DNA of 64,000 nucleotides, from NCBI GenBank assembly GCA_046563655.1, contig CM102286.1, positions 10,168,001 through 10,232,000 on the forward strand, written 5' to 3'. How positions within the stretch are numbered: the stretch's first letter is position 1; each line of letters begins with the position of its first letter. Made by a program: the position numbers and the translations under genes. Under the pieces are notes generated by a model. The model had not been told where the DNA came from. It did not search any database and saw only the letters and a program-made list of their open reading frames with translations. The stretch comes from Yuukianura sp. NJ FZ-2021. Its lineage: Eukaryota. Below, in pieces: positions 1,880 through 50,356 of the stretch.

Positions 1880-1955
1880 GTGACTCGATAGCTTAAGGGT
1901 TAGAGCTGTCTCCCCGGATTGGAGAAGGCGTGGGTTCGAATCCCACTCGGTCACT
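1880..1955 (+). ncRNA. tRNA-like Pol III unit in LTR2
   Basis: Identical to 1592-1667. Confidence 0.8.
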
Positions 1956-2879: not shown

Positions 2880-3500
2880 TCAGACAGCAACTAGTCTAAA
2901 CTTCATTCTCTGTTCAGCAACACTTCCAAACCACAAGTGATTTCTCTCTGAAATGTCTGTCACTTCTGCATCGAATTTAGTGACAAACTGTTTCACTAAT
3001 ATTTTTAAAATGTTTGTTGAAATATTTCTGCCTGTACATGCATGTACGCCGGCACGCCACAACCACAGTAGCTTAGGATCCATCTTTTCCGGGTTATCTT
3101 CACGCATCAACCGCTCCGGGTTGTAATTCTGCGCCTGTTCAAAAATGTCATTTCCCGGTTCCATTTCAAAAAGAAGCGATCCAGGGACTGCTACTACGTC
3201 CACGCTTCCTACATAGTATGAACCAACTACGGAGTTTGCATGGGGACTACGAACACTTACAATTCCATTACCATTTAAACGCATGCCTTCTATCACACAA
3301 GCATGTAGAAGCTTGTTTCGCAGAGTTTCATCTATACTTGCTCCGCCCAACTCTTCTTGTAGTTAACGCCAAAGGTCCGAACGACTAGTTAATTCTTTTA
3401 AAATTTGCATGTTGTGAGGAAAGTGTTGGAAGTGCGTGGTGAGCAAGATTTCGCATACTTCTTGTGCTGATAACGTCTGAGGGCCATTAGCAGTCGCGCG
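2880..3500 (-). pseudogene. Cytochrome P450 C-terminal fragment, divergent and intronless
   Basis: ExxR (EGMR), PERF-like (YNPERL) and heme motif (WRAGVHACTG); in-frame TAA upstream (LWR*LQEE); no N-terminal half evident. Confidence 0.7.
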
Positions 3501-4351
3501 AGGAGTATCGATCAAAAAAATTGTGAACTTACATTTTCTAATAAGCTCAACCTTTGCAAAAACGTACTCTTTCTCTGCCCGCTGGTTTATTCTCGGTTAG
3601 TTTGCTTTAGCACTTACCTTTCTCAAAAATATAATTGTGAACTCTTTAGTATATCGGGTATGTGGAATTGTCAATCCTTATATAGAGCATTTTAAGAGGT
3701 TCTTAGCATGTATGCATTTAATCTTACTAAATTTGAATATTTCGCGGTCGCTCTGCTTAACGTTTCCATGTTTTCAATAAAATTGACCAAATTTAGCATG
3801 AGTAAAAGTCGTAAAAATAGTCTATCCAAGGTTTAAAGTATTAAATAAAAAACATAAATGCAGATTTTGAATAGAACCAATATAATTTAAAATCTCAATT
3901 ATGCTGCTTCGCATATTAATTTATGCATTACCTAACCCAAAAATTATTACATAAAGTTGGCGGTTGAATTATCAAATTGATATACTTGAATACCTAGCGT
4001 GTTAACTAACCGCGGTAAAAAATTACCAATTATTATTAGAAAATTTCATTGCGTTTCATATATCTAATTTATCGTTTTATTAGAATTTGGTACTATATTC
4101 AATTGTTATTAATTGAATTGAATTGAAGCTCCTAGCGCAAATGTATGCTTCATTGGCCATCTTTATCATCAGTAATATTCATTGGGAAGGGGATATATGT
4201 GGATGAAAAATTAAATTTAAAACGACCTGTAGAAACGGTATTGAAACCAAATAACCTTCGCAGCAACTCCAGCAGTTGAAAGTAGAGTGCTTTTTTTGAA
4301 ATTTTGTGGTAATGATAAAGTTAAAACTTATTGTCTTGACAGGGATAAAAA

Positions 4352-6001: not shown

Positions 6002-6923
6002 TTTGAGTTGCCTGGCAACTTGAAGCTGCAGTTGCAAATGTTCTTTAACAGAAATCCTTAACTATGTTTTATTTCAGTTTGTCGTTTGTTCCCGGATTCA
6101 AAAATCTCAAATGCCGTAGAAAAGCAACACACTAATGGAAGCGTCATATCAATATTAAAAGTAACTAGGAACGCGAGTTCTAAGAGTTGTAGGTCGACAT
6201 TGATTAGTCGAGTTCTTACGAACAGTTGGTAGCTTCTGAGAAAGGCTCTTGAAACGAAAGAATATCTTCAGGTCAAAGGTCAAGCATTAGATTCATTCCG
6301 ACTTAAGTTACTTAGCAATTCTCTATAATATCGGCATAAGTATTAAATTATCGCAATTCTAATCAAAAATGTAATTTATCACAAAAAGGCGTCGTGTGCA
6401 GCACCGTGAACTCAAATGTTGATCAAACTATTCTGCGACTTAAAAACGTCAAGCAGAAGCTAACATTATACTTTGCAGCAACCAATTCTTTGAAAATGTG
6501 ACGTTAGCTGAAAATGACATTAAAGATCACGGGTCAAACAACAGATTCTTGGAATTGGTCAACTTTTTACAGTAAATCTAAAATAAGCAACCTGAGATTA
6601 CGGGATCCTAAGAAATTACATCCCTATAATTTCTTTTGGTTTAGCAAAGTCCAACTTACTATGAGATTAACTTTAAGTTTTGCAAACTAAACTCAACTTT
6701 CAGTTTAAATTTGTCAATTGCGTTTAGAAGTGCCTTTCATCTAAGTCAAACCCTTCAAAGTGTCGTCGACTTTTTCGAGTCTAAAAATATTTACCTAATT
6801 GTAACTTTATCCTACTAATATATTAAAACAGCTGATTTAATTGTAGTAACCCAGAAATTTTGTGTATCTTTATAGATGGGATTGTAGATCGAAGTCATCA
6901 AATATGGTAAAATGGTTTGCATA

Positions 6924-8538
6924 TTAATTTGAATCATGTTTCAATAAATAGGTCGCCATGTACATGACGGTGAAAAGCAAAAACAGAGCGGGATAAGCAA
7001 TTCTAGCAGCCACGTCCACTTTTTTGGGCCAGGTCATTTGGGCGTACCTTTTCAATGGATTGGCCTTTGGGTCAAGCAGAGTTACCTCAGATTCAGCAGG
7101 AGATTGGTTTCCACCGCCCCAGTAGTTGACCAACACACAAATGACCAAAGCAGAAAAAACAAATGTTAGGGAGAACCCGGTCCACACGTCAATGGCCTTC
7201 GTGTACGACACAGGAGGCGTTGCTGCATTTATAAACCACGTTGCAGAAGACATTATGAGCAAGGTTACCAAGGTCAATGTTATTCTTGCGCTTGTCTCCT
7301 TTTGATCAACCCAGAATGCCATATACGCCACAATCACGAACATCGTCGTGGGAATGTAGACTTGAATCAAGTAGTAAGAGAACTCACGTCGAAATAGAAA
7401 ATCAACACGAAGACAACTGTAAACTCCTAGCGTTAAAAAAAACGAGATTTAAAAATCTAAAGTTAACTTGTTGCTTTGCGGCTGGATTTGAAGCTGCTGC
7501 TAACCTGTGTTAGTATGAGAATCACAGTAGTCTGTCGTAAACTGCTCCAACGCAAATCGAGGCAAATGAAGAGCCGGGGTCACTTGTACTGGGTCATCAA
7601 TCTTCCATTTAAAAATTAAGTCGTCAGTTGTAAATCCGTCTAGGACCAAAAAAGAATATCAGAAGGCCAAACTGGAATGTTGTACTTTGGCTTTCTTACA
7701 ACTGGCCATGCGGAGGCTGCAAGTTTGCTTGTCCAGTGGGTACAGTTTTAGTATCATTGGGCAACTTAAAGTAAGGCTCACTCTGAAATAAGTATGAACC
7801 TAATCAGTGTTAGGCAAAATATCAAGGTTTTTAATAAAATATATTTAATCACACAAGAAACTTTACCTAACGCTGTACAGGACCTGCCCATCCGGGAATA
7901 TCCGAACGTAAACGTTTGGTTTGAGAAGATCATGCAGATGACCTTCCTTTTCATTGGAAAAGAACAAATCTGGGATCCAGACCTTAGAAGACGTGCTCAA
8001 GGTCAAGTACTGTTTTTGTCCTGCCAATTCTGGAGAGGATTTGCCCCAGGCCAACCTTTCGTCGAGCCACAACATTCGAAATGTCAACTGCGTTTTGTAG
8101 ATCTTTCGAAAAAAAATTAAAGTTGAAAATTTTTTCTTTTGGACCTAAAATTCATTTTAACAATTACCATTTTCACGTCATCGATATCATCAACTGACCT
8201 CACGTACATGTTGACATTCACAACAGTTGCTCCTGAAATATTTTTTGTTACATTTTGCACGTAATTTTCTGTTGAATACTCTTAGTACTATATAAATATT
8301 AAACCTGTGCCATTAGCTCCTTGTGGACGAATGTGAGTATCGTAGTTCTTCGGATCCAAAATTGAATTCAAAGTTTGCCGCTCCATTTCTTGAATTGATA
8401 CTCCGCCTCTAATATTTTAGAAAAGAATATTTTAGTAAAAAAAATATTTCAAATGAATATGAATAATTCTTACACTCGGTTTTGGAAGAGTAACGCCGTC
8501 ACAAAGCAAAGCAAAAATTCGACGCGGTCCGTTTTCAT
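6924..8538 (-). CDS. Cys-loop ligand-gated anion channel subunit, glutamate-gated chloride channel-like (multi-exon)
   Basis: Signal peptide from ATG 8538; WIPDLFF, Cys-loop CPMILKLYPLDKQTC, loop C YCDSHTNTG..YSC, M1-M4, PPVSYTKAIDVW. Confidence 0.9.
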
Positions 8539-18355: not shown

Positions 18356-21052
18356 ATGCTCCCACCGGGGTTCTCGTTTAAAAGTTATAACATCAGTAGT
18401 TATGAAATTCATAACTCGATTTCAAAGGTCAAAGACCTTTTAACATTTCCCGCCATTTGGAAACTGTACAACGCAGGACACGGGGTCACCAAACTTAGCA
18501 AAGGTTGTCAATTGCACCTAGAGGAGGCGGTTAGACAGTTCGGAAAAGAAATATGGCCGATTCAAAGTAAGTGAAGTTACAAATGCACGCATTTTTTTAA
18601 TTAATGCGATTTATTCTTGTCACTTTTCATTTGTATTTTTTGTATTGTAATAATAAATGTGCAAAATGTATACAAACGCTTTTTCTGGTATATAGTGGCA
18701 GATGCATGGGGTAAATTCCCAGCAGGTCTTCTGTCTGGCCACATAGGCATGATGGGCGACTTTGAAGAATGTATGCTCATGCGCGGAAGTGTTCAAGATC
18801 AACACAATGCTTCAGTTCCATTTGGAGGTCGCTATTGTCCAATGCATCTGGTTATGTCACAAGAACTTTTGGAAAACATTAACACAAATTTTAGTTCCGA
18901 GGTTAGAAATCAAACTTATTTCAACTTTTATTTCCATTTCATTTTTTAAAAAAAAATCAATTTTTAAAGCAACGCATGAAATTAAGAAAGACTTTTGCAA
19001 ATATTTTTTTAGACAGATAAACCACTTTACTCGATTGGCGAAGAATTGAATTTTTTAATGACGCAACCCACGCTGGCAGCCTGTCTTCCGACAGCATGCA
19101 CTCGAAACGATTTCAACATCTTGTTCAGTTCATTGACCTCGGTAGCTCAAGGTTTGATGACCCCTATCACCTCTTACTGTCAAACCGATGATAAACCACC
19201 ACTTGACGGAGCAGTTATTGCAATGATGTATGAAGTTCAAAATTACAAAAATCTGATAGATGTATTGATATTTGGAAATTGGATTTTTTAGGGTAGTGGT
19301 AGCACTGATCTTGTGCGTTACTTTAGTTGCAAGCGCTCTAGATCTTCTGTTGGATCAGAGGTCAAGGTCATCGTCAAAACTCTGGAAGGCATTGATGTCA
19401 TTTTCAGTGCCAAAAAATGTTCAAAGGTTGACTTCGATTAATGCGTCGGATGACTTGGGATGTCTCCATGGCCTGCGATTTGGAAGTATGTGTTGGGTAG
19501 TGCTGATCCATACTTGGAGCATTCTTTCTTACAGTGCAATCTGGAATTCTTTCAGAATGAGTACAGTAAGTATTATTAAGTTTGCAAGAAATATTAGAAT
19601 TTCTATTTAATGTTGACTTTTTTGTCAAGTACTACGAATCATGGTCAATTCTCACAGTGATCAATGGATCATTTTGTGTTGACACATTTTTTACACTCGC
19701 TGGCTTCCTAATTTCCTATCAACTTCTTCGCGGATTGGACAAACATGCAGACGAGAAATTCAATCCACTAAAGCTGTATCTACACCGTTTTCTAAGGTTG
19801 TTGACCTAACCCAATCTAAAAAAAAACACAACCTACTTAAACTAATTTTTTAAATATGAGTTTGCTTATTTTAGAATTACTCCTACCTATGCATTTCTGC
19901 TGGGCCTGATTGCCACATTTCAGCCGTACTTGTCCAATGGTCCAATGTGGAGTATCATTGACATGAATTCAAAATATTGCCGCAGAAATTGGTGGCAGAA
20001 TTTGCTTTACATCAACAACTTGGTTGCGCATGATATAACTGAGGACCCCACTAACGTACCTTGTTTTGCTGAAGCCTGGTATTTGGGATGTGACATGCAA
20101 TTTTTCATTGTTTCCATTTGGCTGATTTTCTTGATTTGGAAACACCGTCGTACCGGTTTCGTTTTGTTGTTGGCAACAACCATCGTATCAGTAGTCACCC
20201 CTGGATGGATAATCGGCGCCAAAAATTTGATGCCGACGAGTATTCCGTTTCGACCGTAAGTAGAATTTCTGGAAAGTTTTGTCCAGATTTTTTAAGCATG
20301 ATAGCTTATAATATTTGGTTCGAATTAAAACAGACCTAGTGGAGAGGAAACTGGCAATTATGACATTGACGTTTATGTCAAGCCTTGGACTAGATACGGA
20401 CCATACGTAGCAGGTACGTAGCCGTTGACATAGCTGAAGGCCATTGACCTTAAATTTTGAAGTGTTTATAATTTTTAATTGTGAAGGAATTTGGACGGGA
20501 TATGTCTACTACTTGTTTAAGAGTACGCACTTTCGATTCAGTCGTCCTGTTACATGGATAGGATGGTCTTGCGCCACAGCAACTGCTCTGGCTGTAGTCT
20601 ACGGACCTGTGCGGTTCTTTGACCATGACATTCCGCTAGGAAAAGTCGAATCCGTACTCTACGGAGGACTGGCTCGATTGGCATGGGGAGCTGTAGTTGG
20701 GTGGATAATTTTTGCATGTTTAACCGACAATGGCGGACCGATAAACCGATTCCTGTCAGCGAAACCTTTTGTACCGCTCGGTAGAATAACGTTTTGTATG
20801 TATCTTGTTTCTTATGAACTTCAACAAATGTTTCATGCTCGCTACCCGCATCCACTGTCTTATGATGTCTATTTTTTGGTAAGTGATGCATAAAGTATTT
20901 AAACTTATTATAAAACTAAAGTTTTGACTATTTTTTTATAGGTTAACTTGTTTTTGGCGCACTTGACGCTATCGATTCTCATCGGATTTTGGATAACAAT
21001 TTTAATTGAATCTTCATTCACCAGCTTAACTAAAACTATTTTAGGAAGCTAA
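18356..21052 (+). CDS. Nose-resistant-to-fluoxetine-6 (NRF-6)-like O-acyltransferase, multi-exon
   Basis: DAWGKFPAG..GDFEEC (NRF domain), CLHGLRF, VDTFF, YLHRFLR|ITP, WYLGCDMQFF, YVKPWTR; stop at 21050-21052; exact start uncertain. Confidence 0.88.
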
Positions 21053-21099
21053 CTAACTAAAAATGAATTTTAACATAAATATGAATTTGGAAAGTTAAA

Positions 21100-22145
21100 T
21101 TAAAATGTGAGGAGGAGATTGATGAGTGTTCCAATCACTATATCTTGCATCACAATGGGATAGCTATTTTTGGCAACAGTTGTATTTCCAATTTTCAAAC
21201 GAATGACCGGAGCTGATCTGAGAACTGCTTTGTTCAGGCGGGAGTTTGCAAACTCCGCGAAAATTTCCCTGAACTTTACAGAATTTTCCGTAATATTGAC
21301 ATGGAATTGAAGGCAAAAATAGAGCGCCACTGAAGAATTAATAACACATAACCCCATGAAGGAAATGGCGGCAATGCTCAACTGTCCCCAGAATCTGAGG
21401 TTGAAGTAAACTTGGGTTCCGCGCCTCTCCCCACTCGTGCAAATTTTCGCGCTAGTTCCATTGTCCCCACCAAATGTGTATCCACCAGCCTTACACCGAC
21501 TCCCCCTAGCGGCTGAAGTGAAACTAGCGAATTCGAGCTGGCAACGTCGCACCGTTGCTCCAGTGTCCCCACCCTACCCAGGGCACAGATAATAAATATA
21601 GTGAGACTAAATTAGAAAAACCAATACACAAAATCAGTATTGTAGGACATTCACAGACATAGTCACTATTGCGTGCTTAACCAAACCTAACGCCGCGCCT
21701 TCGGCGCGGAAACTGCATTGTACCAAGAAGTTTCGTGCTGAAATTTCACGAAAATGTTTCTTTGCAGTTTCCGCGCCGAAGGCGCGGCGTTAGGTTTGGT
21801 AATGCACGCAATAGTGATTACGTCTGTAGGTTTGGCGGACTAAAAGTCTCGCAATAGTGATTACATGTTCCCTAGTCCCTAGTGGGCTTTTCTACAGCGG
21901 CTTTTTTACATTGAAGCAACACTACAACGTTGCCAGCTCGAATTCGTTAGTTCGACACCAACCGCTAGACGGAGTCGTTGTTTTAGGCTGGTGGGGACAC
22001 ATTTGTCCCCACTTGGTGGGGACACTGGGTGGGGACAATGGAAGCAGCGCTAAAATTTGAACGGGTGGGGACAGGCGCGGAACCCAAGTTTACTTCAACC
22101 GAATCTGATGATGCAGAACAGAGCCGTCGATACGACGTTGGCAAA
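21100..22145 (-). pseudogene. 3' remnant of a 7TM chemoreceptor, disrupted by a MITE
   Basis: Near-identical to the last exon of 40963-42360; similarity resumes after the MITE at 22109 and stops near 22145. Confidence 0.85.
21399..22100. mobile_element. MITE with 8-bp TSD and GG-starting TIRs (Merlin- or hAT-like)
   Basis: TIR GGTTGAAGTAAACTTGGGTTCCGCGCCT; TSD GAATCTGA (21391-21398, 22101-22108); empty site in the paralog near 41254; internal palindrome 21661-21820. Confidence 0.9.
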
Positions 22146-25684: not shown

Positions 25685-28205
25685 ATAAGGAAAGCTATTT
25701 TATAAAAGTATTCATGTCTCTCTGTCCGCCTGTCCCGGAAAGTATCAGAACTATTATCTCCGGTAGGAGTGGGGAAGTCCCTGTTGCATGGAACGAAACA
25801 GCTTCTGTTCCACTTCAATTTCGCTTCTGTTCTACTTTTTTATAACAGAAAGTCCGGTGACGTTTCGTTTCGTTCAGTTACATCCCCATCTGTTCCTGTT
25901 CAAAAATCAGAAGCGGAACTGAAACAGAAATGCAAGAACTTTCTGTGTTGCGGGATTTTTAGCCAAAAAATATCAGAAAAGGAATTTTTTTAACGACAAA
26001 ATTTTGTTTTTAGCAGAATTTCCTTATGCTTATGGAAATTTTCATGGTTCCGGAATTACCCGGGTAATACTATTATTGCCCAGGATATTCGAAAAACCGG
26101 GTTTTCCCGGGAAAGGACGGGTTATAATGGGCAGCAAAAGTCTTAGGTCTCAGGCTATTGTAAAGCTTCTTAACAAAAGTTAAGTTGAGAGCTGGCAGTG
26201 CTGGCCATGTTTCGCTTCGTAGAATATCAACTAACTTATTCATTTACGCAAAAGAATAGAAGATAAAGTTTCATGAAACTGAGATAAATTGAGTTTGAAA
26301 AAAGGTTAACTAATTTCACCCGCTACCCGCTCAAGTAGAAAATCTTAATGAGATTAGCTGAGAGTAGTTTAAGAAAATATCTCAGCAAAGTATAGCCTAA
26401 CATACGAGTCCATGAATTTGAAATTCCCACAATTAATACATTATTGCCCAATGTTGCCCACGTCCAGAAAAATCCGTTATTTTCCAGGTTGGGTTTACGG
26501 GTTTTTTCCACAATATGTCCGACTTGGGAAAACCCACTTCGGAGCCCTCTGGATATCTAGATAAGGAAATGATGTTAGAATAATATCAGTGAGTCATTCC
26601 TTTTGCTGAACCCAAAGTTACAAAATCCGGAGCAAGTCTATCCAGGTCTATTGCTAACTTATCAATTCTAGCAATTATTTCCCATTGCAAACATACGTCG
26701 TAAAGTTAAAGTACACTATTCTTCACTACAGTAGATGTCTAAAAAGTTGAATTGAGTTTCTTCACACTTCGACTCCATTGTTAACTGTATCGTCAACCTC
26801 TCAAAATTTATCATTGCAACTGAACAATTCAAATTGAAAAACAATACAGCTTTTCCGAATGCAGCTTCGATCATATAAGCATAAAATGAAACTGACCTAA
26901 TTTAGTAACTCGAAACTTTCAATTACTAAGAAAAACGTAGAAGATTATCAAAAATAGTACAACAAAAGTCTAAAACCCGTAGGACAACGCCATCTGCGTA
27001 ATTGTAAATTTAATCTTATGGTGCATTCACATTAGACAAAAAGTTCCTAGAAACTAGTTGCTAGGAACTTCGGGTAACTTTTTAATTTTTGGATGTTCCG
27101 GTTCTAATAAGGACAAATTTTTGAGGAACTTTTCATCATAGAACTAGGAACAAGTTTCTAGGAACTTGTTCTCACAACTTTTCATTTGTAGATGTGAACG
27201 CACCTGGGAACTTTTCCGTTTTCATTCCTTCATATCAGCTGTGTCGACACAAAGTTACGTAATTAAAAACGAAATGGTTGCTTATACTGGCACATCATGC
27301 TAAACCATAATGTACTACTTTAGTAACAGATATCCCTTGACATGGAAGGAGGTCATCTAATGTGTTCCATGCCATCGTGTCAATTGAATTTCATCAACTG
27401 CCATTGCATCAACTGAATTATGTCAATTTGCATTGTATCAACGCGCAATTGTGTCAATGGCTACTAGTATCAACCAACGTAACCGAACCTAACCTAAGCT
27501 AAACTAAGCATATTAAGCATTACACTCGTTGACACAATTAGTCGTTGACACAATTGACCAGTTGATACATTTCTAGTCGACACAATTCTCGTTGACAGAA
27601 TTCAGTTGATGCAATTCAATTGATACAATTTATTTATTTATTTATTTATTTATTAGGCCCATCGGGCACTCAGCCCACGGGGCCATGGTAATCGTTTGTA
27701 CATGAAAGTCGGATTATAGAGTCTGGCTATAAATTAATTTACATAATAAATAAAAGTATAGCAGTTGATATCTTCTTGCCGTAGTTTTGGTTGGTTGACC
27801 AGTTCAGAGGCTTTCTCGGACGGATTGACTAATTTACTATCTAGCGTTGTGTCAGCCGAACTGTTTCACATCTCCGTCAAAACTAAAAGTCGCTATTTTT
27901 TCGATTAGTCACATCCCATTTCAAGCCATGTAACGCATGTCCTTTCCTTCTTCTTTTTGTTGATGGACTAATTTAGCTTAGATGTAACTTAATAGACTAA
28001 ATTAATCAATAATAATTAACTACTACTAGTTAACATATCTATTATCACTAACTGTTTTTTTTTTGTTGGCTTTTTCTTTTTTGATTTTTTTGTCTTTTTT
28101 TTTTTTTTGATTTTTTTTTTCCTTAATTTCCCAATTTAAATAGATTAAATATAGTTATATATTATTAACTAGGGATACTTCCCCTTATTCCATGCAACTA
28201 GCATT

Positions 28206-28697
28206 TTAGACTGGAAGCTCTCTTCCCAAACGTCGCAGTTCTTCATCTCGTCTGTAATTCTCAACTGTAACCCTGCGCTTTCTCTCCGTTCTGATTCTAT
28301 GCGCCTGCGTAACCAGGACATAGGCCATGACTGAAATTGGTACTAATAAGAGAATGAGTAAACAGCAAATTATAATGTCAAATACGTATTCAGTATGTGC
28401 CATCCCCTGTTGGATCTGCAATTGCGATGACAACTCTTCAGCTTGGATATCGTTCTCCAGCGCGTTTACCGCTTGATATTTCAGTTGGTCGTTATAGACG
28501 TTATCATATGTGAATCCAAATTTTTTTGAGAACTCACCACCATATCCGAAAAGTGACCTAACCTTAGTTATGAATTCCCCCAAGTTGTAAATTTTGCCGA
28601 GTGCCTTCGGGGCAAGTTGGAGTAGTCCAGATCCTGTGATTTCTGTTGAACAGAAGCACAAAATGAATACAAAAACGCTTAATCTTACTCCTTGCAT
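28206..28697 (-). CDS. LINE-borne ORF3: small type-I membrane protein of unknown function
   Basis: 163 aa, intact; ATG overlaps the ORF2 stop region; signal peptide, one TM helix with CC, polybasic tail; lies inside the TSDs. Confidence 0.75.
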   Translation of the reverse strand: MQGVRLSVFVFILCFCSTEITGSGLLQLAPKALGKIYNLGEFITKVRSLFGYGGEFSKKFGFTYDNVYNDQLKYQAVNALENDIQAEELSSQLQIQQGMAHTEYVFDIIICCLLILLLVPISVMAYVLVTQAHRIRTERKRRVTVENYRRDEELRRLGRELPV

Positions 28698-29307
28698 TCT
28701 TCAATTGTGAACAATCTGCCCTTCACAGAATTCAAAAGTTTGTTTTTCAGTGCTTTTAAATTTCCCGACTCCCGTTCCAGAAACTGTAAGATTTGTTGTT
28801 GTCTCCTGGTCTCCTCCACCATAACTGGCTCGCAAGCTCTCATCACTTTAGAATGAGGGCATTCGAAAATACAGTGAAAGGCGTCATCAGCATTTCCTTT
28901 GTTGCAAATTGTGCAGTGCTGGCTTGGGTTAAATACTAAATTTCCATTCATTCTTAGGAATGGCTGACCCATTCTGAATCCAATATTCCACCTTTTGGCC
29001 TTCCCCTTGGTCCCTTTGTGGCTGGTGCTTGTAAGAAGTAGTCATACCCTCTTATGGGTGGCTGTGTGAATTTTTCCTGCCAAGTTTCACAGATACAAAA
29101 AATGTCATTTAGTGTCACATCGTTTTCTGCCAGTACAGCATTTTTCACATTACTAAAACCTCTGGAGTTCCAGAACAAAATGCTCGTTGCTTTTTCTGTT
29201 GAGTCATGGAAATTAAGATTATTTTTGTGTGAATTATATGCTAAGTTACTATGTGGTACAATAAGGGTTGAATGAAGGTCATGATCCGGTCCCGTGGGCT
29301 GTAATTC
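28685..29307 (-). pseudogene. LINE ORF2 remnant: APE N-terminus joined out of frame to the C-terminal CCHC region; RT deleted
   Basis: FWNSRG, DIFCICETW, GRPKGGI, then CTICN...DAFHCIFECP; junction near 28982. Confidence 0.88.
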
Positions 29308-30015
29308 TCATTGAGACAGCTCATCTACTTTTCCGTTGAGGATCCCATAGCGAGTTGCCTTTCCATTAGCTGTAATTGTCAGAGTCCCTGACCTGATGAG
29401 GTGAGTCATCCTCGGATTGAGTGCCTTCTGCTCTCTTACGAATATTCTGAAAAGTCGCTCCTTTTCTCGTTCATTTTGAGTTTTTTCAGGATTAATAAAA
29501 ACAAATTTGAAAGCCTGCTTACCATTCAGTTCCTTTTTGTTTTTCAAGACACGGTATTTGTCCTTTTCCTTCACCAATTTCACCAAAACAGGCCTCACTT
29601 TTCCCTGACCTGGGCGACCAATCCGTCTTATTTGACTGATAGCTATGTTATCCAGGTTCATTTCCAGAAAAAGATCGGTAACGGTTTCTTCCAGAGTATC
29701 GTAGTTTTCATTTGCCCGCTCTTGCAATCCGTTGATGACCAAGTTGGGAGCTATGATTTCTCGCCTCATGTATTCCAAATCCTTTTCGATATCACTGATC
29801 ACTTGTTCGACCTCCTGTAATTCTCCTGTGAATGTCTCTATTTTTTTCCATGTTTCCCCCCAATCGAAAAACTGACCCACAGTCCACTTCACTTGTTCCG
29901 AAGTTGATCCCTTAAGGACCTCCTCCTTTGACTTTTTGTCCATTTCGTTCTCTTTGGGAGACTCGGCTTTCCGCTTTGCTCTAGGTGTGGTGGGAGGGGA
30001 GTGTCCTATTGGCAT
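29308..30015 (-). CDS. LINE ORF1 protein (coiled coil + L1-type RRM/CTD)
   Basis: NLVINGLQE, RRIGR...RPVLVKL and VFINPEKT..ER motifs; intact 235 aa. Confidence 0.9.
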   Translation of the reverse strand: MPIGHSPPTTPRAKRKAESPKENEMDKKSKEEVLKGSTSEQVKWTVGQFFDWGETWKKIETFTGELQEVEQVISDIEKDLEYMRREIIAPNLVINGLQERANENYDTLEETVTDLFLEMNLDNIAISQIRRIGRPGQGKVRPVLVKLVKEKDKYRVLKNKKELNGKQAFKFVFINPEKTQNEREKERLFRIFVREQKALNPRMTHLIRSGTLTITANGKATRYGILNGKVDELSQ

Positions 30016-30841
30016 TGGGAACTATAGCAGAGATGTTCACTCTTCCACTTCTAAAACCAGACTCCCAATTGATACAATGACGTGCTACCATCTAAGGTTA
30101 AGCGATAGTACGAAATGTTCCGGGTTTCAACTGTACTAATGAGGTGGTAAAGAAATTCCAGGCCATCACTGTAGGTCAACGACCATTCACGTCATCCGGG
30201 TCGACCCGGTCACACTCGCTACTGTCGTAGTACAAGTATTCTGAGGTACAATGTCGCACTGAGGTCGAAAGAAACGTAGAGATGATTGAGTGCGACCCAC
30301 TGACCCAGTCCTAACCATTATCAGACGTGATGTTGCACTTGCTTCTGCAGTTGAAGTTAATCAAATTGCGAAAAACTGCCTTAATTAGAATTAAAACCTA
30401 ATTTGGAATTTTAATTAAGTAATCCTAAACACGGTACCTTTCATTTCAAAAACAGAAGAAATTATTAAAGAATAGAAAATGGGTTTGAAATTAGCGGGTC
30501 GACCCGCAAAAGAAAAAAAAACCTTGAAGTGAGGCAATGTGAGACATGATGAGCCAATCAGGAGCGAGCAACTTTTTTGGAGAAGAAAAGTTGAGTGATC
30601 GCTTCACTCATACAACTTTCCTGTCCAGTGTGAACAGAAAAGTTTCGGGAACCTGAAACTTTTGTTCCCGAAACTTCGGGCACAAGTTCCTATTAACTTT
30701 TTCACCTAATATGAACGCGAGTTCCCTCAAGTTTCCAAAACAAGTTCCTTGATGCTAGGAACTTTTGGCCTAGTGTGAATGCAACCTTAGTTTAAACTTT
30801 TCGGCTTGTCATGATGACAGTGCAGAAACTTATCTTATCAA

Positions 30842-36233: not shown

Positions 36234-37305
36234 TACCGTGTGCGCCAGCGAAAAGAGTACACCCTCAATTCAGTTTCCAAGGAAACAAGTTTTAAAATGG
36301 GCAAACAATGGGGGCGGGGGGAAAACGAGAGAGCAAAATCTGTGAAAATCGTGTTTCCTTTTTTTCAAGAAAGAGGAAATTATTAGCCTGTCGATATTTC
36401 TTTTTCGTTTATCGTTTAATTAGGAACTGCTTCGTTCTACATAACGCCTCAGTATACGATTCAGCATCGCGCAGAAATGGTAGCTTATTACTATCAACAG
36501 TCTAGTTTTAGAAAAGCCCAGAGTGTTTTCAGTGCCGTCCATCCAAATCTTCCGATTCCTAGTATTTTTACCATTCAGAGAGCTGTGAAGAAACACGAGA
36601 TACACGGCAGCCAAGAAAATCGAAAAAGAGTCGGAACCAAAAAAGCCACCAATGACATGACCGCTGCATCCATTTTACCCTACGTTTCTGCAAATCCACA
36701 TGACTCAACACGACGAATTGCACAGAGGTCAGGAATTTCAGCAACTTCTGTACGAAGAATCCTGAAACGCGAACGGTTTCATCCATATAAGATGCAATTC
36801 CATCACGCCTTAACTGACGATGACCCGAAAAGACGAATCGAATTTTGTGAGCAAATGATGGACATGTGCCTGCAGGATCCCACTTTGGTATCAAAAATTT
36901 GTTTCACTGATGAGGCCACATTCTTTTTGAATGGACGCATGAACCATCAAAACTTTCGGTTTGTAATTTCCACTTAACCTATTCTTGTGATTCCGAATCA
37001 AATTAAGATGAAATTATAATCGCACTAGGTATTGGTCGGATTCGAATCCACACTGGATGAGGGGGTCCAAATCTCAAAATGCTCCAAAGATCAACGTTTG
37101 GGCTGGTGTAATTGGTGACACCATTATTGGCCCTTTCTTCTTTGAGGGAAACATAAATGGTGAAAACTTCTTGGACATGCTGGAATCAGAAATAATTGGG
37201 CCCGCTGAAAATATGTAATATGTTTCCCCTCATAGTTTCCTTGGTATCGAAAATAAATAAGGTTTTGAAATTTTGGGTGTACTCTTTTCGCTGGCGCACA
37301 CGGTA
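36234..37305 (+). mobile_element. Tc1/mariner element (rosa/DD41D-like), 3'-deleted transposase with an intron
   Basis: Perfect TIR TACCGTGTGCGCCAGCGAAAAGAGTACACCC, TA TSD; ICFTDEATF..NHQNFR|YW..NPHW...INVWAG...IIGPFFF; downstream catalytic residues missing. Confidence 0.92.
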
Positions 37306-38385: not shown

Positions 38386-39190
38386 TCGCTGGTTGGTTGA
38401 TGTCTTCCTTCCAGAATCGAGTGACGACGTTCTGCAGAACGACGGAGTCCAACGCCCATCCTTTGTGTGCCCGTGTGACCTCCTTTGTTCAAACAAACAT
38501 TTTGAAAAAAACTGTTTCAGAATTCTGAACACTTTTTTGAACAATTTTTTGAAAATTTTCTCTACCTGACGCATGGCGGTAAGGAATACTTGTGGATTGA
38601 AAAACCCAGTCATCCAGAAAACTGGTGGTTTTCCAAACGACAACCAACTGCGATAACTGGTTACACCGCTCCAGCAGTTCAGTAAACCAAAAGCCAATGG
38701 AACTCGAATCCCAGCAAATCTGAAAAGTCAAAATTTCAAAAACTAATTTCAAAACATTTTGAAAAAACGATTCCGAAATTTATGACTTACCTTCCTCCAA
38801 GTTGGTGGAACTTGTGCATTGTACATTGCGTCGAGTGACTCCCGTAGCACACTGCTCATGATAATTGTTCCGTCAATTGCCAATTTCAAATCACTCAAAG
38901 TTTGGCGCACTACTAACAAAACTTTGCCCATTCGATCCAACTCCTGTTTCAGAAAAATGTTCATCGGAAGCAGAGATCCTAGCTTGCTCAGCGCATCTTT
39001 CACCTAAAACAAACCTTTCAACTTAATTAACTACACAAGTTTAACTCAACAATTAATTGCACAGTAATTAACTACTTAAGTTAACTAAAACTTGATTACC
39101 TGAAAAGAGACGTAGGGAAGAGGCAACTTCCTGAACATTTCATCCGCCAGACGATACACAACGTCCTCTCGTGACTCTCCGCCTGCACTC
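38386..39190 (-). pseudogene. Axonemal dynein heavy chain (DNAH5/8-like) internal fragment, 4 exons
   Basis: [65 protein letters not shown]; frameshift near 38655; introns retained. Confidence 0.9.
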
Positions 39191-39224
39191 CCGCTCTGTT
39201 TCGGCTGAACTCCGAGAATCAGAT

Positions 39225-40913
39225 GCAGATGCATGGGGTAAATTCCCGGAAGGTCTTCTGTCTGGCCACATAGGCATGATGGGCGACTTTGAGGAGTGCA
39301 TGCTCATGCGCGGAAGTATTCAAGATCAAAGCGCTTCAGTTCCATTTGGAGGTCGCTATTGTCCAATGCATCTGGTCATGTCACAAGAACTTTTGGAAAA
39401 CATTAACACAAATTTTAGTTCCGAGGTTAGAAATCAAACTACTTTTAACTTTTATTTTCATTTCATTTTCAAAAAAAAAAAAGTCTTTTTTTAAATCAGT
39501 GCATGAAAATCAGAAATACTTTTTTTTTTCAAATATGTTTCTTTAGACGGATAAACTCCAGGTTTGTAAACAAGAAAATAGTTTTTTCTTCAACAGGTTA
39601 GGCAATAACTCAAGCGTTTTAAATGTTGTTTAAAAATTAACAAAACTTGGTTCACCGTGCCTTCCTATGGTAATGATTTATATGGAATCAAATGGGATTA
39701 GAGTAAAATCAGAGTAAAAAATTGTTTGGAGCGAATTTTTTCCTAAACAGCACTTATTGCCAAACCTCTTAAAGCATTTCGTTGCTATAGAAACCTTGGA
39801 TAAACTAATTTACTCGATTGGCGAAGAATTTAATTTTTTAATGACGCAACCAACTCTGGCAGTTTGTCTTCCGACAGCATGCACTCGAAACGATTTCAAC
39901 ATCTTGTTCAGTTCATTGACCTCGGTAACTCAAGGTTTGATGACCCCTATCACCTCTTACTGTCAAACAGATGATACACCAACACTTGACGGAGCAGTTA
40001 TTGCAATGATGTATGAACTTCAAAATTACAAAAGCCCGATAGGTGTATTGATATTTAAAAATTCGATTTTTCAGGGTATTGGTAGTAGCACTGATCTTGT
40101 GCATCACTTTAGTTGCAAGTGGTTTAGATCTTCTGCTGGATCAGAGTTCAAGGTCATCGTCAAAACTCTGGAAGGCGTTGATGTCATTTTCAGTGCCAAG
40201 AAATGTTCAAAGGTTGACTTCGATTAATACGTCGGAAGACTTGGGATGTCTCCATGGCCTGCGGTTTGGAAGTATGTCCTGGGTAGTGCTGATCCATACT
40301 TCGAGCATTATTTCTTACTGTGCAATCGGGAATTCTTTCAGAATGAATATAGTAAGTATTTTTAACTTTGAAAAAAATATTAGCATTTTAATTTGATGTT
40401 GACTTTTTTTTTGGATTGGTTACATGGATAGGATGGTCTTGCGCCACAGCAACTGCTCTGGCTGCAGTCTACGGACCTGTGCGGTTCTTTGACCATGACA
40501 TTCCGCTAGGAAAAGTCGAAACCGTACTCTACGGAGGACTGGCTCGATTTGCATGGGGAGCTGTAGTTGGGTGGATAATTTTTGCATGCTTATCCGATAA
40601 TGGCGGACCGATAAATGGGTTCCTGTCGGCGAAACCTTTCGTACCGCTCGGTAGAATAACGTTTTGTATGTATCTGGTTTCTTATGAACTTCAACAAATG
40701 TTTCATGCTCGCTACCCGCATCCACTGTCTTATGATGTCTATTTTTTGGTAAGTGATACATAAAGTATTTAAACATATTATAAAACTAAGGTTCTGACTA
40801 TTTTTTTATAGGTTAACTTGTTTTTGACGCTATCGATTCTCATCGGATTTTGGATAACAATTTTAATTGAAGCTTCATTCACCAGCTTAACTAAAACTAT
40901 TTTAGGAAACTAA
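39225..40913 (+). pseudogene. NRF-6-like duplicate, 5'-truncated and internally deleted
   Basis: Matches 18698-21052 but lacks about 19625-20548, carries an insertion at about 39560-39800 and a short deletion in the last exon. Confidence 0.88.
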
Positions 40914-40962
40914 AACTAACTAAAAATTAATTTTAACATAAATATGAATTTAGAAAGTTAAA

Positions 40963-42360
40963 TTAAAATGTGAGAAGGAGATTGATGAGTGTTCCAATTA
41001 CTATGTCTTGCATCACAATGGGATAGCTATTTTTGGCAACAGTTATATTTCCGATTTTCAAACGAATAACCGGAGCTGATCTGAGAACTGCTTTGTTCAG
41101 GCGAGAGTTTGCAAACTCCGCGAAAATTTCCCTGAACTTTATAGAATTTTCTGTGATATTGACATAGAATTGAAGGCAAAAATAGAGCGCCACTGAAGAA
41201 TTAATAACACATAACCCCATGAAGGAAATGGCGGCAATGCTCAACTGTCCCCAGAATCTAATGATGCAGAACAGAGCGGTTGAGACAACGTTAGCAATAA
41301 CGCATACGTTGAGCGGTCCAACCGTTTTCACAAAATTATCCATCAGTCTTGCAACAACTCGAAACGTTCTATCCAGCATTATTTCTTTACCACGCAATTG
41401 CTTTGAGGCCAACCTAGTATAAGAACAAGTTATTTAAAGTAAAAGCGTAAATAATATAAAATATACATAACTTACTTTTTGTTTACGAATGTTTGCCATT
41501 TCCCAAAGTTGTATAGGTTAAAAAGGAAGACGTTGGCCATGCAAAACATCGTTTGTGCAAAATCAATTGCGATGACGCATGATGCGAAAAGAGAAACTAA
41601 GAATCTACCGCCATAAATCAAATCACAAACTTCCTGGAACGGTTTCAAAAAAATATAATTTCGGTTGACCAGAAAGTCGAACATGGCAATCACGGTGAAA
41701 AAACCAAACGCATGGACTCCGCATGCACAGTAAAAATAGATGAACTCACTCAACCGGTTACGGAGGACTGGGCCACTTCCTAATTCGGCAGCTATGGATC
41801 AAAAAGTGTTTTAAAAAAGTGTTAAGCTTTTAAGAAAAAAAAAACTCGTAATGGCGGCGAATTAGGAAATACAGGGAATCGAATTACCGAAATTCCAAAT
41901 TACCCCTAGCCTATCATTGAGGAAGACACTTCGGTAAATGAACCATACTGTCTGACCGTTCCAAATTTGTCAACCTACACTACGTTTCCTTCTTACCAAA
42001 TGTTTTATCCATTAAGTTCATGCCATTGATGTAATTAACAATAGTAGGTTGTGGAAACGCTAAGATGTATGGAGAAAAATATATGCCAGAGAGAAGTATC
42101 CCTTGGAGGTATAGAAATATTTCTTTCCCAGTCGTGATTGGATCAAAAATTTTGTAGGCGCAAAAAACAATTACAAGAATCTTGATGCCAACTAAAATTG
42201 CATACAATGGTCTCCACAATTCGAATTGTCGTTTACAGATTCTACTTGAAGCAATTCTATAACAATTTCCACTTGAGTCCCATTCAGCCACGGATAAATG
42301 AAAAAAGTTCCAGAATTCAAAAAAGAATCGCTGGATTTTTAAAATTGATGGAGTGATCAT
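40963..42360 (-). CDS. 7TM chemoreceptor-like protein (gustatory receptor superfamily), 3 exons, about 380 aa
   Basis: Exons of about 42360-41994, 41792-41477 and 41416-40963 splice in frame; many TM segments; C-terminal ...IVIGTLINLLLTF. Confidence 0.72.
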
Positions 42361-46572: not shown

Positions 46573-49185
46573 TCACATCCCATTCCGTTTAACATTGAAA
46601 TCTAGCTTAAATTTGATTTTCATTTTAAAGCCCGTTATTGACTTCAATTTACACTTATTCAATATATTCCTTCCAAAAACTTCAATCAAAGCTGAAATAT
46701 TTGAAACGACATGAAACACAATTAGAATGCAACACATCTTTCGCATGAAAGCATTAACACCGGATGGTCGCTTGATGCTTTGCGGCTTCTTTTCTTCACG
46801 AATCAAAATATTTCCTGGTTCAGATGGATGAAACTTAGACATCCATTTTGCCCAAATGTGGTAGATGCCATGCGCCATCAAGTCCAATATCCCCTTGTAA
46901 ATGATCTCCTTCCCGGGATCACGTTGCTCAATGACGAAACCATCCCATTCCTTCAATATTTTTTTACTTCCTTTTAAAAGGCCTGGTCCCTTATTCATGT
47001 CTTTGCTAACAGAAATAACAGCTTCCAGTGCTTCTTCTGTATCAATGTATCCAATTCCACTACAGTTCTGTATTTCTATCGCCACTTTCTTATAGAACTC
47101 TTCCAGTGGCTCAAATTTCTGAAACGGTAAGTTTGTAAATATTACCCTCGAAAACGGTAAAGGTGAGGATGCATAACTTTTCGTTTCTAAACTGTTGTTT
47201 TGCTCAACGGCACCTATATAATCGCATTGAAAGAATCCAGCATTTCTCGGCAGCACACCAAAATTTTTGTAGTAGCTGATTGCATTTTCAACATTATTTC
47301 TCCCTGGTCTTATGTTGCAAACTGGAGGTTTTAACGACACGTGAATTTGTAAATTCAAGGACTTAACTATTTCAACTACCTTGTCACAATTTGCCGCCAA
47401 TGAATTATCAATTTGTTGGCTTTTTGCAAGTCTGGAGCATAACCGAGGAACTATTTCAGTGACATCCGGGTAACAAAGACAGGGTTTGATAAGGCTAATA
47501 TCTAAATATGTGAACGCGAAATTTCGTTCATTCTGTGTTTCTGATTTCAACCTCAGAATGTTATCCTCCCAACCGTCCGGAATGAAAAACGTCCGCTCTT
47601 CGTCTTCAAAAGCTTCATCTATACGTGTTTTAGTCATGAAATTTTCCATACATGTAGTCCCGGATGTCACCACAGCTTTGTACACACTTAGTAGAAGTGT
47701 TATTACTAAGGTCCAAAGTCCCAGAATTCGTAGCGCAGTACTAAAATTATTAAGGACTTTCTTGAGTGAGTGCAGTGGGTGAGCATTTGCTTCAAAAAAC
47801 AGCGCAAAGTTGTAAAAAGCTGAAATGAAGATGGAATTGAAGGATGCCCGCCAGTCGCCTTCGAAATGCTTGTAAGAAACGACTAATACTGCGATAGGTA
47901 CCAAAATAAAGACAAAACTGATAATGATTGACCAAGCAACGGCACTGAAAGGCTTGAAATAAATTTTGATGATTAAATTCTGCTCCAAGTCGTTACATGT
48001 TATAAAATTAAAATAATTTTCCCGCGTCGGAATGAATCTGTAAAAGTCCGGATTAGGAGATTTGATGTTTCTAAAGTCTTGTATTTTTCCCGTAAACTCC
48101 TGTTGACTTAGCATAAATTCTAGTACAGATGTGGCGTTTGAAAAGTCAATGCAGGGGGTAATTGAAGTGGTACAATCGAAAGGATCTGGGAGTACTCTAA
48201 TGTCAAATAAAGTCAGAGACAAGTAAGTCATTACGAGCTCTGGAGTCCATCTAACTGCTTCTTTATACCCGAAAGGTGGCAACGGTTTAAATGGATTGTT
48301 TAATAAACCATTTAGTAACTCACCGATATTTATAAAACTGGAGTTAATCAGTGTCCTCCAATGGTAAAAATGCGAGAGATGAGTCTCGACATTTGTGCAA
48401 CCCAACGCAAATTTTCCGCCATACAAAATATTGTCCAAACTATCTTCTGCCGTTTTACGACAATTTTCATAACCACCATGGACACAGCTTGTAATACGAT
48501 TTAAATACAATACGTGTGGTATATCCTGTTTTCCAGTAGTAGTTAATGCCTCCAAACTCCAAAACCATTGGCGCCAATCAGGAACGACATAAAATACAAC
48601 AACAGATAAAACGTCGGACATGTAGTACTCAATCCCTAAGCTGTCGCTATCAAGTTTTATTTGATTTCCGTAAACTATCAAGTACTCGTGAATATCTTGT
48701 TTATAAATACGGATCAACTGCGTGCTTGCCATCATATTTTCATCTTGATGTTCAAAAATATTGATATATATTTTTGCACTTCGATGTACAAATTTTTTTG
48801 CGACTTCAGTTACACTGTCAGAGAAGACACGGAAGCTTTGAAATTTAAGTGCAGGAAACAAAAAGAAATAACAAAAACAGAAATTTCTTTTGCGCAACTT
48901 CGGAGAAGTGATAAGGGATACGTTGTCGTTAATTAGTTTGACTGGTACCGCCAAACGGTCCTGTAAATCTAGCGGTCTGTAAAAATTAACAATTGATACT
49001 TCACAATCCGGATACTCATTCACCAAATGGTCCAACATTTCTATTCGATACGACACAAGAGATTCTGAACTAACTACTCTCAGAACACACAACAGACACG
49101 CGAAGACGCAGTAGAGCCAACACATTTCGGTAGCGGTTTCAGTATTTATCAGTACTCGTGTCTTACAGCGGTATAGAATGAACAA
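46573..49185 (-). CDS. Intronless divergent ionotropic receptor (IR)-like protein
   Basis: 870-aa ORF; signal peptide from the internal MCWLYCVF; FITC..., FKPFS..AW (pre-M1/M1), M3 W...LLSVYKAVVTS, S2 end L.AHGIY..W, M4. Confidence 0.78.
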   Translation of the reverse strand: MFILYRCKTRVLINTETATEMCWLYCVFACLLCVLRVVSSESLVSYRIEMLDHLVNEYPDCEVSIVNFYRPLDLQDRLAVPVKLINDNVSLITSPKLRKRNFCFCYFFLFPALKFQSFRVFSDSVTEVAKKFVHRSAKIYINIFEHQDENMMASTQLIRIYKQDIHEYLIVYGNQIKLDSDSLGIEYYMSDVLSVVVFYVVPDWRQWFWSLEALTTTGKQDIPHVLYLNRITSCVHGGYENCRKTAEDSLDNILYGGKFALGCTNVETHLSHFYHWRTLINSSFINIGELLNGLLNNPFKPLPPFGYKEAVRWTPELVMTYLSLTLFDIRVLPDPFDCTTSITPCIDFSNATSVLEFMLSQQEFTGKIQDFRNIKSPNPDFYRFIPTRENYFNFITCNDLEQNLIIKIYFKPFSAVAWSIIISFVFILVPIAVLVVSYKHFEGDWRASFNSIFISAFYNFALFFEANAHPLHSLKKVLNNFSTALRILGLWTLVITLLLSVYKAVVTSGTTCMENFMTKTRIDEAFEDEERTFFIPDGWEDNILRLKSETQNERNFAFTYLDISLIKPCLCYPDVTEIVPRLCSRLAKSQQIDNSLAANCDKVVEIVKSLNLQIHVSLKPPVCNIRPGRNNVENAISYYKNFGVLPRNAGFFQCDYIGAVEQNNSLETKSYASSPLPFSRVIFTNLPFQKFEPLEEFYKKVAIEIQNCSGIGYIDTEEALEAVISVSKDMNKGPGLLKGSKKILKEWDGFVIEQRDPGKEIIYKGILDLMAHGIYHIWAKWMSKFHPSEPGNILIREEKKPQSIKRPSGVNAFMRKMCCILIVFHVVSNISALIEVFGRNILNKCKLKSITGFKMKIKFKLDFNVKRNGM

Positions 49186-50356
49186 AGTTTAACAGGTCTG
49201 AGAATTTCTGTGTTAGAAGCTCATCCAACTTATAGTAATAGTAGGTTAGAATTCGTATTGAACATTGACGTGTAGTAGACCAAAAACCATATTCAACTTC
49301 GTGTCGAACTGCTTCGCATTACTAAATTTATGATTTTAGAAATATTAAACATCAAGTATCGTCACGGACTCAAATATTGTTTACCTTGCTCCCGCCCCGA
49401 CCCTGACCCCATATCAACCACACGAAAGGCAAAACTTATATTTTTTATCCTTCACCCTTCTCAAAAACGTACTAGAATTATAAATCATTTATTATATTCT
49501 TACATTAGTAATTATTCGTATTTGCGCCGTAAGACTCTTGGATGATCATCTCAATATTGTTCGATAACCTAAGCCGAAAAACGTATGCTTTACCATGATG
49601 TGCTTGAATTTTTTGATATGATGGGACGTACGTGAAACAGCTTGTCCTGGCTTACTTTCTTCGGTGTTGTACGATCAACTTTCAAACGGGTCAACGTCAT
49701 GTTATCTGTTGCAACTTGCTACTAAAAAACGTAACGTTTTGCGGGAAACAGATGCAACGCATTGACGACGAATTATTAATCGAATATAATAGTTGCATAA
49801 ATATTGTACAATGACTTAAAACATTAGGTTACGTATCAATTTGAAACATCAGCTTCATCATCATCATGCTTGATAGTACCAAGAAGCACTAAAGTTTATG
49901 TTAAATTCACCTAACTTTGCACCGAAAACTTAGGATGTAAAGATAACATATAGAAAACCGATCTAGGGTAGCATGTTGATGGTTTTTGTACGTGAGTGGT
50001 AAAAGTGGTTCCATTTCAAAATCATCCTTACTTATACTCTGCAACCAACAAAAATAGCGCAAATTGTATACATCACTACACACAGCTTTTAGGAACCACT
50101 TTGGTTCGCCAAAAGTATTGAAAACTGAAAGATAGAATAACAATGAAAGTTTGACCTTTGTACCTTCCTGTCGCATCTGTTGTTTGGATAATGAGCACAA
50201 CTTCATCAAATCAATTTTTGAGTTCAGCAGTATCAGAATCTAATCACATCACACAACAAATCTCATCAGAATTTACACCGCAGCATGCGCATTCTCCTGG
50301 CACTTATTTTTAGTTTTAGTTTCGCAATTTAAGTTAACTAGTGGATCCGTTTGATA

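Follow-up and report, generated by a model that had tools for sequence, protein, structure and literature searches.

A LINE with a third open reading frame

The DNA analysed here, referred to as the window, is a stretch of 64,000 nucleotides from Yuukianura sp. NJ FZ-2021 (assembly GCA_046563655.1, contig CM102286.1, positions 10,168,001 to 10,232,000 of the forward strand; coordinates below count from its first letter). Its minus strand carries, from 30065 to 27628, a long interspersed nuclear element (LINE) that is flanked by target-site duplications and tailed by (TAAA)n, and in which a third open reading frame (ORF), ORF3, follows the remains of ORF2. ORF3 is intact and intron-free, encodes 163 amino acids (aa) at 28697-28206 on the minus strand, and starts with an ATG within ATGCAAGGAGTAA, 10 nt ahead of the stop of the ORF2 frame (28685-28687), so that it overlaps the last ORF2 codons. 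The evidence set out below makes it very probable that ORF3 is a genuine internal gene of the LINE, and its product is predicted to be a small membrane protein.

An earlier reading, made from the letters of the stretch (the sequence-only reading), had described this overlapping, intronless ORF and the bounded, tailed element around it, and both descriptions were borne out: CAATTGATACAAT stands at 27617-27629 and again at 30066-30078, with 13/13 nt identical (repeat family D20 of the window). It had also put ORF3 between the ORF2 stop and the tail; the position is correct, but ORF3 and the tail do not adjoin, a 3' untranslated region (UTR) of 551 nt with an A-rich tract lying between them. The parts of the element are listed here from its 5' to its 3' end; X2 and X4 are sequencing runs and L001 is a metagenome contig, all three introduced in the sections that follow.

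30066..30078, minus strand: 5' target-site duplication, ATTGTATCAATTG on the minus strand, 13/13 identical to 27617-27629; the X2 and X4 contigs end next to it (30064 and 30052)
30016..30065, minus strand: short 5' UTR of 50 nt between the duplication and the ORF1 ATG, by direct reading
29308..30015, minus strand: ORF1, 235 aa, in which a basic, strand-rich half comes after a long helix; TGA stop in frame with ORF2
28981..29307, minus strand: N-terminal remnant of ORF2, 109 codons without an ATG, looking like the start of an endonuclease; the open frame spans 28954-29307
28980..28981, minus strand: internal deletion breakpoint, from the contig matches of X2 and X4
28685..28980, minus strand: C-terminal remnant of ORF2, about 98 codons in a frame different from that of the N-terminal remnant, with a CCHC zinc knuckle (C-x2-C...H-x4-C)
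28206..28697, minus strand: ORF3, 163 aa, from the ORF list, hydropathy, relatives, alignment and AlphaFold2 (AF2) model
27655..28205, minus strand: 3' UTR, 551 nt, with an internal A-rich tract at about 28046-28130
27656..27684, minus strand: GC-rich 3'-terminal hairpin just before the tail, kept in L001
27628..27654, minus strand: (TAAA)n tail, period 4, 6.8 copies and 100% matches in Tandem Repeats Finder; ATTT on the plus strand
27617..27629, minus strand: 3' target-site duplication, the last 2 nt shared with the tail repeat, which leaves a duplication of 11-13 bp

ORF1 and ORF2 lie in the same frame and are parted by a single TGA (29308-29310, minus strand), and the first 109 codons of ORF2 contain no ATG, which points to translation of ORF2 by readthrough of the stop codon or by re-initiation at a non-AUG codon. 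ORF1 stands where a LINE would have its RNA-binding protein, upstream of ORF2; it gave no Pfam match above the cut-off and no sequence match in the PDB, and its single-sequence AF2 model was poor (predicted local distance difference test, pLDDT, 47.9). In the Atlas feature search the nearest arthropod clusters scored 0.92-0.93, with PF25298 (Baculo_FP_2nd, the C-terminal domain of the FP protein) present in 13-73% of their members. The ORF1 proteins of LINEs may thus be connected with FP-like proteins of baculoviruses, to be taken as a lead only, ORF1 itself having no PF25298 match in Pfam. The N-terminal fragment of ORF2 (117 aa) matched 0 Pfam families; it contains an N..RG...ETW pattern that we take to be endonuclease-like. 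On the C-terminal remnant zf-RVT (PF13966) was found at E=0.016, below the Pfam cut-off. The 66-nt stretch that holds the 3' hairpin folds at -19.7 kcal/mol (z -1.53). When the window was compared with itself by tblastn and blastn for a second copy of the element, only self matches were returned.

ORF3 is joined to a longer ORF2 in other sequencing data

The reverse-transcriptase region is missing from the window copy, having been lost with the internal deletion at 28980/28981. Because most of ORF2 is gone, including this whole region, the window copy is a deletion derivative and cannot be autonomous. Parts of 28000-30100 are listed for six sequencing runs, none of which is an RNA run, and four of these (X2, X4, X5 and X6) were compared with the window, X2 and X4 being labelled as different organisms. 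On the ORF3 side, the contigs match 28175-28981 (X2) or 28489-28981 (X4) and then continue for 769 nt (X2) or 629 nt (X4) that are unlike the window. On the ORF1 side, they match from 28980 to about 30060 (30064 in X2, 30052 in X4) and extend past 28980 by 1045 nt (X2) or 727 nt (X4), again unlike the window. The loose ends at the breakpoint are identical between X2 and X4, and both 30-letter ends were open in the ORF2 frames when translated by hand. The one upstream of the C-terminal remnant reads as 10 sense codons including K-R-x-I-A, like the KRNIA found at the equivalent place in the ORF2 of L001. No contig carrying the deleted junction 28980/28981 was found in X2, X4, X5 or X6. Because the X2 and X4 contigs run on from the breakpoint into further ORF2 sequence, the common form of the element is one in which ORF3 is joined to a longer ORF2, and the 28980/28981 deletion is private to the window copy or a minor variant.

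The ORF3-carrying contigs differ from the window at 7/807 positions (X2) and 5/493 positions (X4). With so few differences, the window copy is young, and the intactness of its ORF3 is by itself uninformative on selection.

Several further observations concern these runs. The two contig matches overlap by 2 nt at 28980-28981, which suggests microhomology at the deletion junction. X5 and X6 are metagenome runs, one of them labelled soil, that hold short contigs of the LINE: an X5 contig of 207 nt over the ORF2/ORF3 junction shows 0 differences from the window, and a 240-nt contig from this pair, with 4 differences, covers the beginning of ORF2 and breaks off into the loose end known from the long form. 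The terminal piece of the 3' UTR (27661-28028) forms a separate contig of 369 nt in X2, at a depth of 447 compared with 164-216 for the coding parts (28175-30064). The excess could come from many 5'-truncated copies, or from short derivatives with the same LINE 3' end, contig depth not being a copy number. X4 has no cover of 27697-27987, and nothing was drawn from this gap.

These contigs bear on the objection that ORF3 is no gene of the element, its frame being open by chance or set beside ORF2 by mis-assembly. Open frames of this length do occur in the window, where 19 of 6977 stop-free runs reach at least 163 codons. The ORF2-ORF3 junction is nevertheless present in the independent X2 and X4 contigs and, without a difference, in the 207-nt contig of X5, and ORF3 has 25 relatives with a conserved architecture. 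An accident of sequence or of assembly is thus scarcely credible.

A second genomic context with the same gene order

One relative of ORF3 is P0002, 37% identical to it (E 5.9e-18), which is encoded at 905-1408 of L001, an unrelated metagenome contig of 1747 nt. Upstream of P0002 a frame is open from the first bases of the contig to 703. Like the ORF2 remnant of the window, it ends in C-x2-C...H-x4-C, with zf-RVT at E=0.016, below the Pfam cut-off, and BLASTP of the two ORF2 C-termini gave 13/44 identical residues (30%, E=2e-6). About 200 nt past the ORF3 stop of L001 lies a GC-rich hairpin (aligned at about 1612-1640) that is identical to the window hairpin at 18/23 positions, counted by eye. 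It folds as such (z -1.8, compared with -1.5 in the window) and is followed by a run of nine A. The order of ORF2 end, ORF3, hairpin and tail is therefore common to the window LINE and L001, whose proteins are 30-37% identical.

A spacer of 201 nt separates the stop of ORF2 from the ATG of ORF3 in L001. The start-stop overlap seen in the window, which the sequence-only reading had taken as a sign of coupled translation, is consequently no feature of the family. The L001 spacer contains 0 ATG where 2.1 would be expected, which is weak evidence that ribosomes might get to ORF3 by scanning or re-initiation.

The same data allow us to weigh whether ORF3 is a passenger, that is, a host gene captured by one LINE lineage and without a role for the element. 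LINEs are able to pick up foreign sequence, and the A-rich tract at about 28046-28130, after ORF3, could be the relic of a captured polyadenylated RNA. However, ORF3 has been kept at 37% identity between two elements that share only 30% over 44 residues at the ORF2 C-terminus, and in both of them it lies upstream of the conserved 3' hairpin. Its composition matches each element, the G+C content at third codon positions (GC3) being 0.43 for ORF3 and 0.34-0.47 for its element in the window, and 0.565 and 0.556, respectively, in L001. Finally, none of the 25 clusters of relatives is a named host gene or a large cluster. We consider a passenger very unlikely. As to a one-off 3' transduction, this was rejected because such cargo would sit downstream of the element's own 3' end, and ORF3 lies upstream of the hairpin in both elements. 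The claim of the sequence-only reading that ORF3 belongs to the LINE, and was not brought in by a transduction, has thus been strengthened, both by the gene order of L001 and by the longer ORF2 to which ORF3 is joined in X2 and X4.

ORF3 defines a family of predicted single-pass membrane proteins

A phmmer search with ORF3 over 1,835,955,588 representative proteins gave 25 relatives at E<=1e-3, of which 8 were at <=1e-10 and 0 at <=1e-30, with lengths of 70-169 aa. Each of the 25 clusters has 1-3 members; one comes from NCBI, and the others were found on contigs of 0.7-6.5 kb in JGI/IMG, ENA and Logan. "Hypothetical protein" is the name of six, and 19 are nameless, so that 0/25 names are informative and genome annotation seems to miss the family. 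The sequence-only reading had listed a match to an ordinary host gene as a refutation, and no relative of that kind, with a name or in a large cluster, turned up. We aligned the window protein with 3 additional members of the clusters and with 24 of the 25 matches, all but P0025, a fragment of 70 aa, giving the 28 rows of alignment A1.

The layout of ORF3 comprises a signal-peptide-like N-terminus (residues 3-21, approximately), a conserved core (39-82), a polar helical stalk (83-104), a membrane helix (105-130) and a basic tail (131-163). Kyte-Doolittle averages of 19 residues exceed 1.6 only at residues 3-26 and 98-133, with the best 19-mer at 105-123 (2.95). The motifs that had been picked out from the sequence are all present in the protein: GLLQLAPKALGKIYNLGEFITKVRSLFG at residues 24-51, CC at 111-112, and RIRTERKRR at 134-142, after the membrane stretch. 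The predicted topology places the N-terminus outside, with about 85 mature residues in the outer part and about 33-40 in the inner part. ORF3 would accordingly be a small membrane protein of type I that crosses the membrane once, in which a cleavable signal peptide is followed by about 85 aa on the outer side, the single helix and a basic cytosolic tail of about 35 aa. The AF2 model built with A1 has a mean pLDDT of 79.6, and contains helices at 3-19, 39-50 and 53-60 and then a continuous helix from 64 to 160 that runs through the membrane segment.

Much of this architecture is kept in A1. Six columns are invariant (F42, G51, F56, Y64, Y68 and L72), and the pattern F-x8-G-x4-F-x7-Y-x3-Y occurs in 28/28 rows. 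All 28 rows also have a hydrophobic 19-mer starting 61-74 residues after the core motif, and in 27/28 the tail contains more K+R than D+E. An N-x-S/T sequon ahead of the helix is absent in 22/28 rows. The architecture is constant across the family at 22-31% identity to the window protein, and the signal-peptide-like N-terminus, the single membrane helix and the basic tail are family-wide features. Mean pairwise identity is 42.9% in the core (39-82), compared with 13-25% in each other region. Within the subfamily of nine to which the window protein belongs, the stalk reaches 32.8%, and the tail, at 21.7%, still keeps a V/I-x-x-Y-x-R-x-x-E-L-like motif. In these alignments the outer core is the most constrained part of the predicted membrane protein, and the basic tail is constrained within the subfamily.

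Searches beyond these relatives returned little. The word-index protein search gave 0 matches with ORF3 alone and 3 with the A1 profile, all among the known relatives, and no fused longer form of ORF3 occurred among 8000 scored candidates, which is weak evidence. There were 0 matches in viral contigs and in prokaryote genome contigs. A single-sequence scan of metagenome contigs also gave 0, and the same scan with the 4-member alignment A3 gave at least one locus (L001). Pfam had nothing above the cut-off for ORF3, P0001, P0002 or P0010; the best PDB sequence match of the A1 profile was the membrane helix of KCNE2 (E 0.1); and the best Atlas score of ORF3 was 0.86, to nameless clusters. Foldseek of the ORF3 model gave a best E of 2.8 in BFVD, with no fusion-associated small transmembrane (FAST) protein listed, and 0 rows in the PDB, and a wide VIA-align search retrieved generic long helices and coiled coils only (Z<=7.8, within the background of the tool). 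On these searches, ORF3 would define a new protein family, one with no Pfam model, solved relative or predicted viral relative.

What ORF3 might do for the element

The sequence-only reading had labelled ORF3 a FAST- or env-like fusogen, which would make it a minimal cell-cell fusion or env-like protein that passes particles between cells, for instance from soma to germline. Part of the architecture agrees with this: the protein is small (163 aa) and single-pass, its N-terminus is predicted to lie outside, and a polybasic run adjoins the membrane. Its best-conserved part is an outer segment rich in aromatic residues and glycine (FG-x-G-x-x-F...G-F/Y-x-Y-x-x-V-Y), a composition of the kind that fusion peptides and loops show, and the distance from core to membrane is held at 61-74 residues. 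Moreover, the short ORF3s with membrane segments of rotifer LTR (long terminal repeat) elements have been proposed as possible fusogens (PMC5408684).

Against a fusogen, the mass of ORF3 lies mostly outside, whereas that of FAST proteins lies mostly inside (PMC2646142). The protein starts MQGV and thus has no Gly2, the N-terminal glycine required for myristoylation, and the CC pair falls within the outer half of the helix, in the window protein alone among the 28 aligned rows, a Cys anywhere in the helix being found in 14/28. Palmitoylation of the CC pair was rejected on these grounds, its outer position and its lack of conservation, and the acylation sites of the earlier proposal are unsupported. 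ORF3 lacks a second heptad region, and its stalk shows only a weak heptad pattern (at best 7/12 a/d positions hydrophobic). A reading of the outer segment of the window protein gave no R-x-x-R site either, as a class I fusion subunit would need, and no match was obtained in BFVD or the PDB, the wide structural search yielding only generic long helices. Filing ORF3 as a FAST or env protein is therefore unsupported, and fusogen-like membrane action, though still conceivable, is made less likely; as an account of ORF3 we hold it to be unlikely. Wider still is the idea that a LINE lineage has its own minimal fusion or egress protein and so forms a non-LTR counterpart of the envelope-carrying LTR elements, which we think quite improbable. 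If true, LINE particles could cross between cells, from soma to germline, or even between animals, and the view of LINEs as strictly cell-autonomous would be overturned.

ORF3 might instead be directed at the host, as a viroporin-like or toxin-like membrane effector, or as a protein that decoys or blocks one of the host's membrane pathways, for example in defence or silencing. The small, single-pass architecture with its predicted outer N-terminus fits this equally. The conserved outer core and the tail conserved within the subfamily suggest specific partners on either side of the membrane, and in the AF2 model the helix runs continuously from 64 to 160 through the membrane, as in many small oligomerising membrane proteins. 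ORF3 nonetheless bears no likeness to a toxin, viroporin or defence family in Pfam, the PDB or Atlas (best score 0.86), and we regard an effector of this kind as rather unlikely.

The explanation that we favour is that ORF3 is a real LINE gene and encodes a membrane-anchored accessory protein, which anchors or routes the element's ribonucleoprotein. Taken as a whole we put it forward tentatively, as a little short of an even call. ORF3 would be translated from the polycistronic RNA of the element by re-initiation after ORF2, and the protein would enter the endoplasmic reticulum (ER). Its outer core would then act across the membrane, within the lumen or on the cell surface, and the conserved tail may contact the particle of the element or a host factor. 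In this way ORF3 could, within the producing cell, anchor or route the ribonucleoprotein at the ER or the nuclear envelope. A precedent for a membrane link in LINEs is the esterase ORF1p of ZfL2-1, to which binding of phospholipids and of liposomes is ascribed (PMC3905857).

Several points weigh against an accessory protein of the LINE. The start-stop overlap of ORF2 and ORF3 is unconserved, which makes the mode of translation given above a guess, and we infer an anchoring or routing function from predicted topology and conservation only. The differences listed among ORF3 copies, 2 synonymous and 1 non-synonymous with 74 more beyond those listed, are uninformative on selection. The longer contigs of X2 and X4 were read for only 30 letters past the breakpoint, and a reverse-transcriptase domain is not among the sequence read; the L001 contig, for its part, begins downstream of the reverse-transcriptase region. 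The linkage of ORF3 to a LINE comes from two genomic contexts, the window and L001, the latter representing one of the 25 clusters of relatives.

Other features of the window

Outside the LINE, positions 1-8000 and 55300-62800 form a large, near-identical duplication with recurring open frames, which could have arisen by segmental duplication or as an artefact of the assembly. The duplicated frames include a P450-like one (2880-3362 and 58176-58658), the membrane region of a ligand-gated channel (6924-7448 and 62220-62741) and a Pro/Gly-rich repeat (1094-1575 and 56377-56967). The window also contains 100 N. A gene whose product has an Acyl_transf_3 domain (PF01757, E 1.1e-6 for 19846-20259) is duplicated in tandem, at 18605-21573 and 39135-41433. 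At 36420-36977, on the plus strand, lies the remnant of a Tc1/mariner-type transposase (HTH_Tnp_Tc3_2, E 6.1e-8; DUF4817, E 2.1e-7). The longest open frame of the window, 871 aa at 46573-49188 on the minus strand, contains several hydrophobic stretches and matched no Pfam family at E<=1e-3.

Comparison with known systems

LINEs have been described with one or two genes and as acting inside the cell that expresses them, and are held to work without membrane proteins. In the open full-text literature no LINE with a membrane-protein gene downstream was found to be reported; Repbase, Dfam and subscription journals lay outside this search, and an earlier description is possible. With ORF3 as a conserved third gene that encodes an integral membrane protein, the life cycle of at least one lineage of LINEs would gain a step at a membrane.

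Close parallels are the short ORF3s with membrane segments, and the env-like ORF3s, of LTR retrotransposons, for example rotifer Vesta4 and the errantiviruses, which are likewise extra ORFs placed after the polymerase gene and combine membrane segments with a helical region (PMC5408684, PMC13524379). Those elements carry gag, pol and integrase, whereas the carrier here is a non-LTR element. The canonical env proteins of LTR elements are large glycoproteins derived from viral F or gB, while ORF3 has 163 aa and no detectable viral relative.

ORF3 differs from the reovirus FAST fusogens in its predicted cleavable signal peptide, in an outer part that is larger than the inner one, and in having neither a myristoylation site nor a conserved inner di-cysteine. 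FAST proteins are not known to have signal peptides. The two are alike in size (about 100-200 aa), in the single helix, in an N-out/C-in orientation (predicted for ORF3) and in the juxtamembrane polybasic motif, as described for p10, p14, p15 and their relatives (PMC12945298). The same source gives as the acylation criterion of these proteins either N-terminal myristoylation or a palmitoylated di-cysteine at the inner side of the membrane (PMC12945298). As a possible counterpart of the hydrophobic patch in the FAST ectodomain, ORF3 has an aromatic and glycine-rich conserved core, but no cystine noose or proline hinge of the kind described for p10 (PMC12945298). No sequence or fold match between ORF3 and FAST proteins was found, a result that a true member of the family could also give. 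Compared with a class I viral fusion protein, or the transmembrane subunit of Env, ORF3 is without the second heptad region, the R-x-x-R site and the upstream surface subunit, and its AF2 model consists of two short helices followed by the helix 64-160.

Among LINEs themselves, the esterase-type ORF1p of CR1, L2 and RTEX elements, exemplified by ZfL2-1, is also a LINE-encoded link to lipids and membranes (PMC3905857). It is a soluble SGNH esterase at the ORF1 position, whereas ORF3 is a predicted integral membrane protein encoded after ORF2, with no esterase motif or Pfam match. Where non-LTR elements have additional ORFs, these lack homology from one clade to another, according to the preprint 10.1101/788562. 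Primate L1 ORF0 is likewise a third ORF in a LINE (PMC4700185). Unlike ORF0, which is primate-specific and antisense in the 5' UTR, ORF3 is in the sense orientation, 3' of ORF2, and kept across divergent elements: it sits between ORF2 and the 3' recognition hairpin, and has been retained where the ORF2 ends have diverged to 30% identity. Being small and easily expressed, it offers a handle on whether LINE particles assemble or are routed on membranes, or leave the cell.

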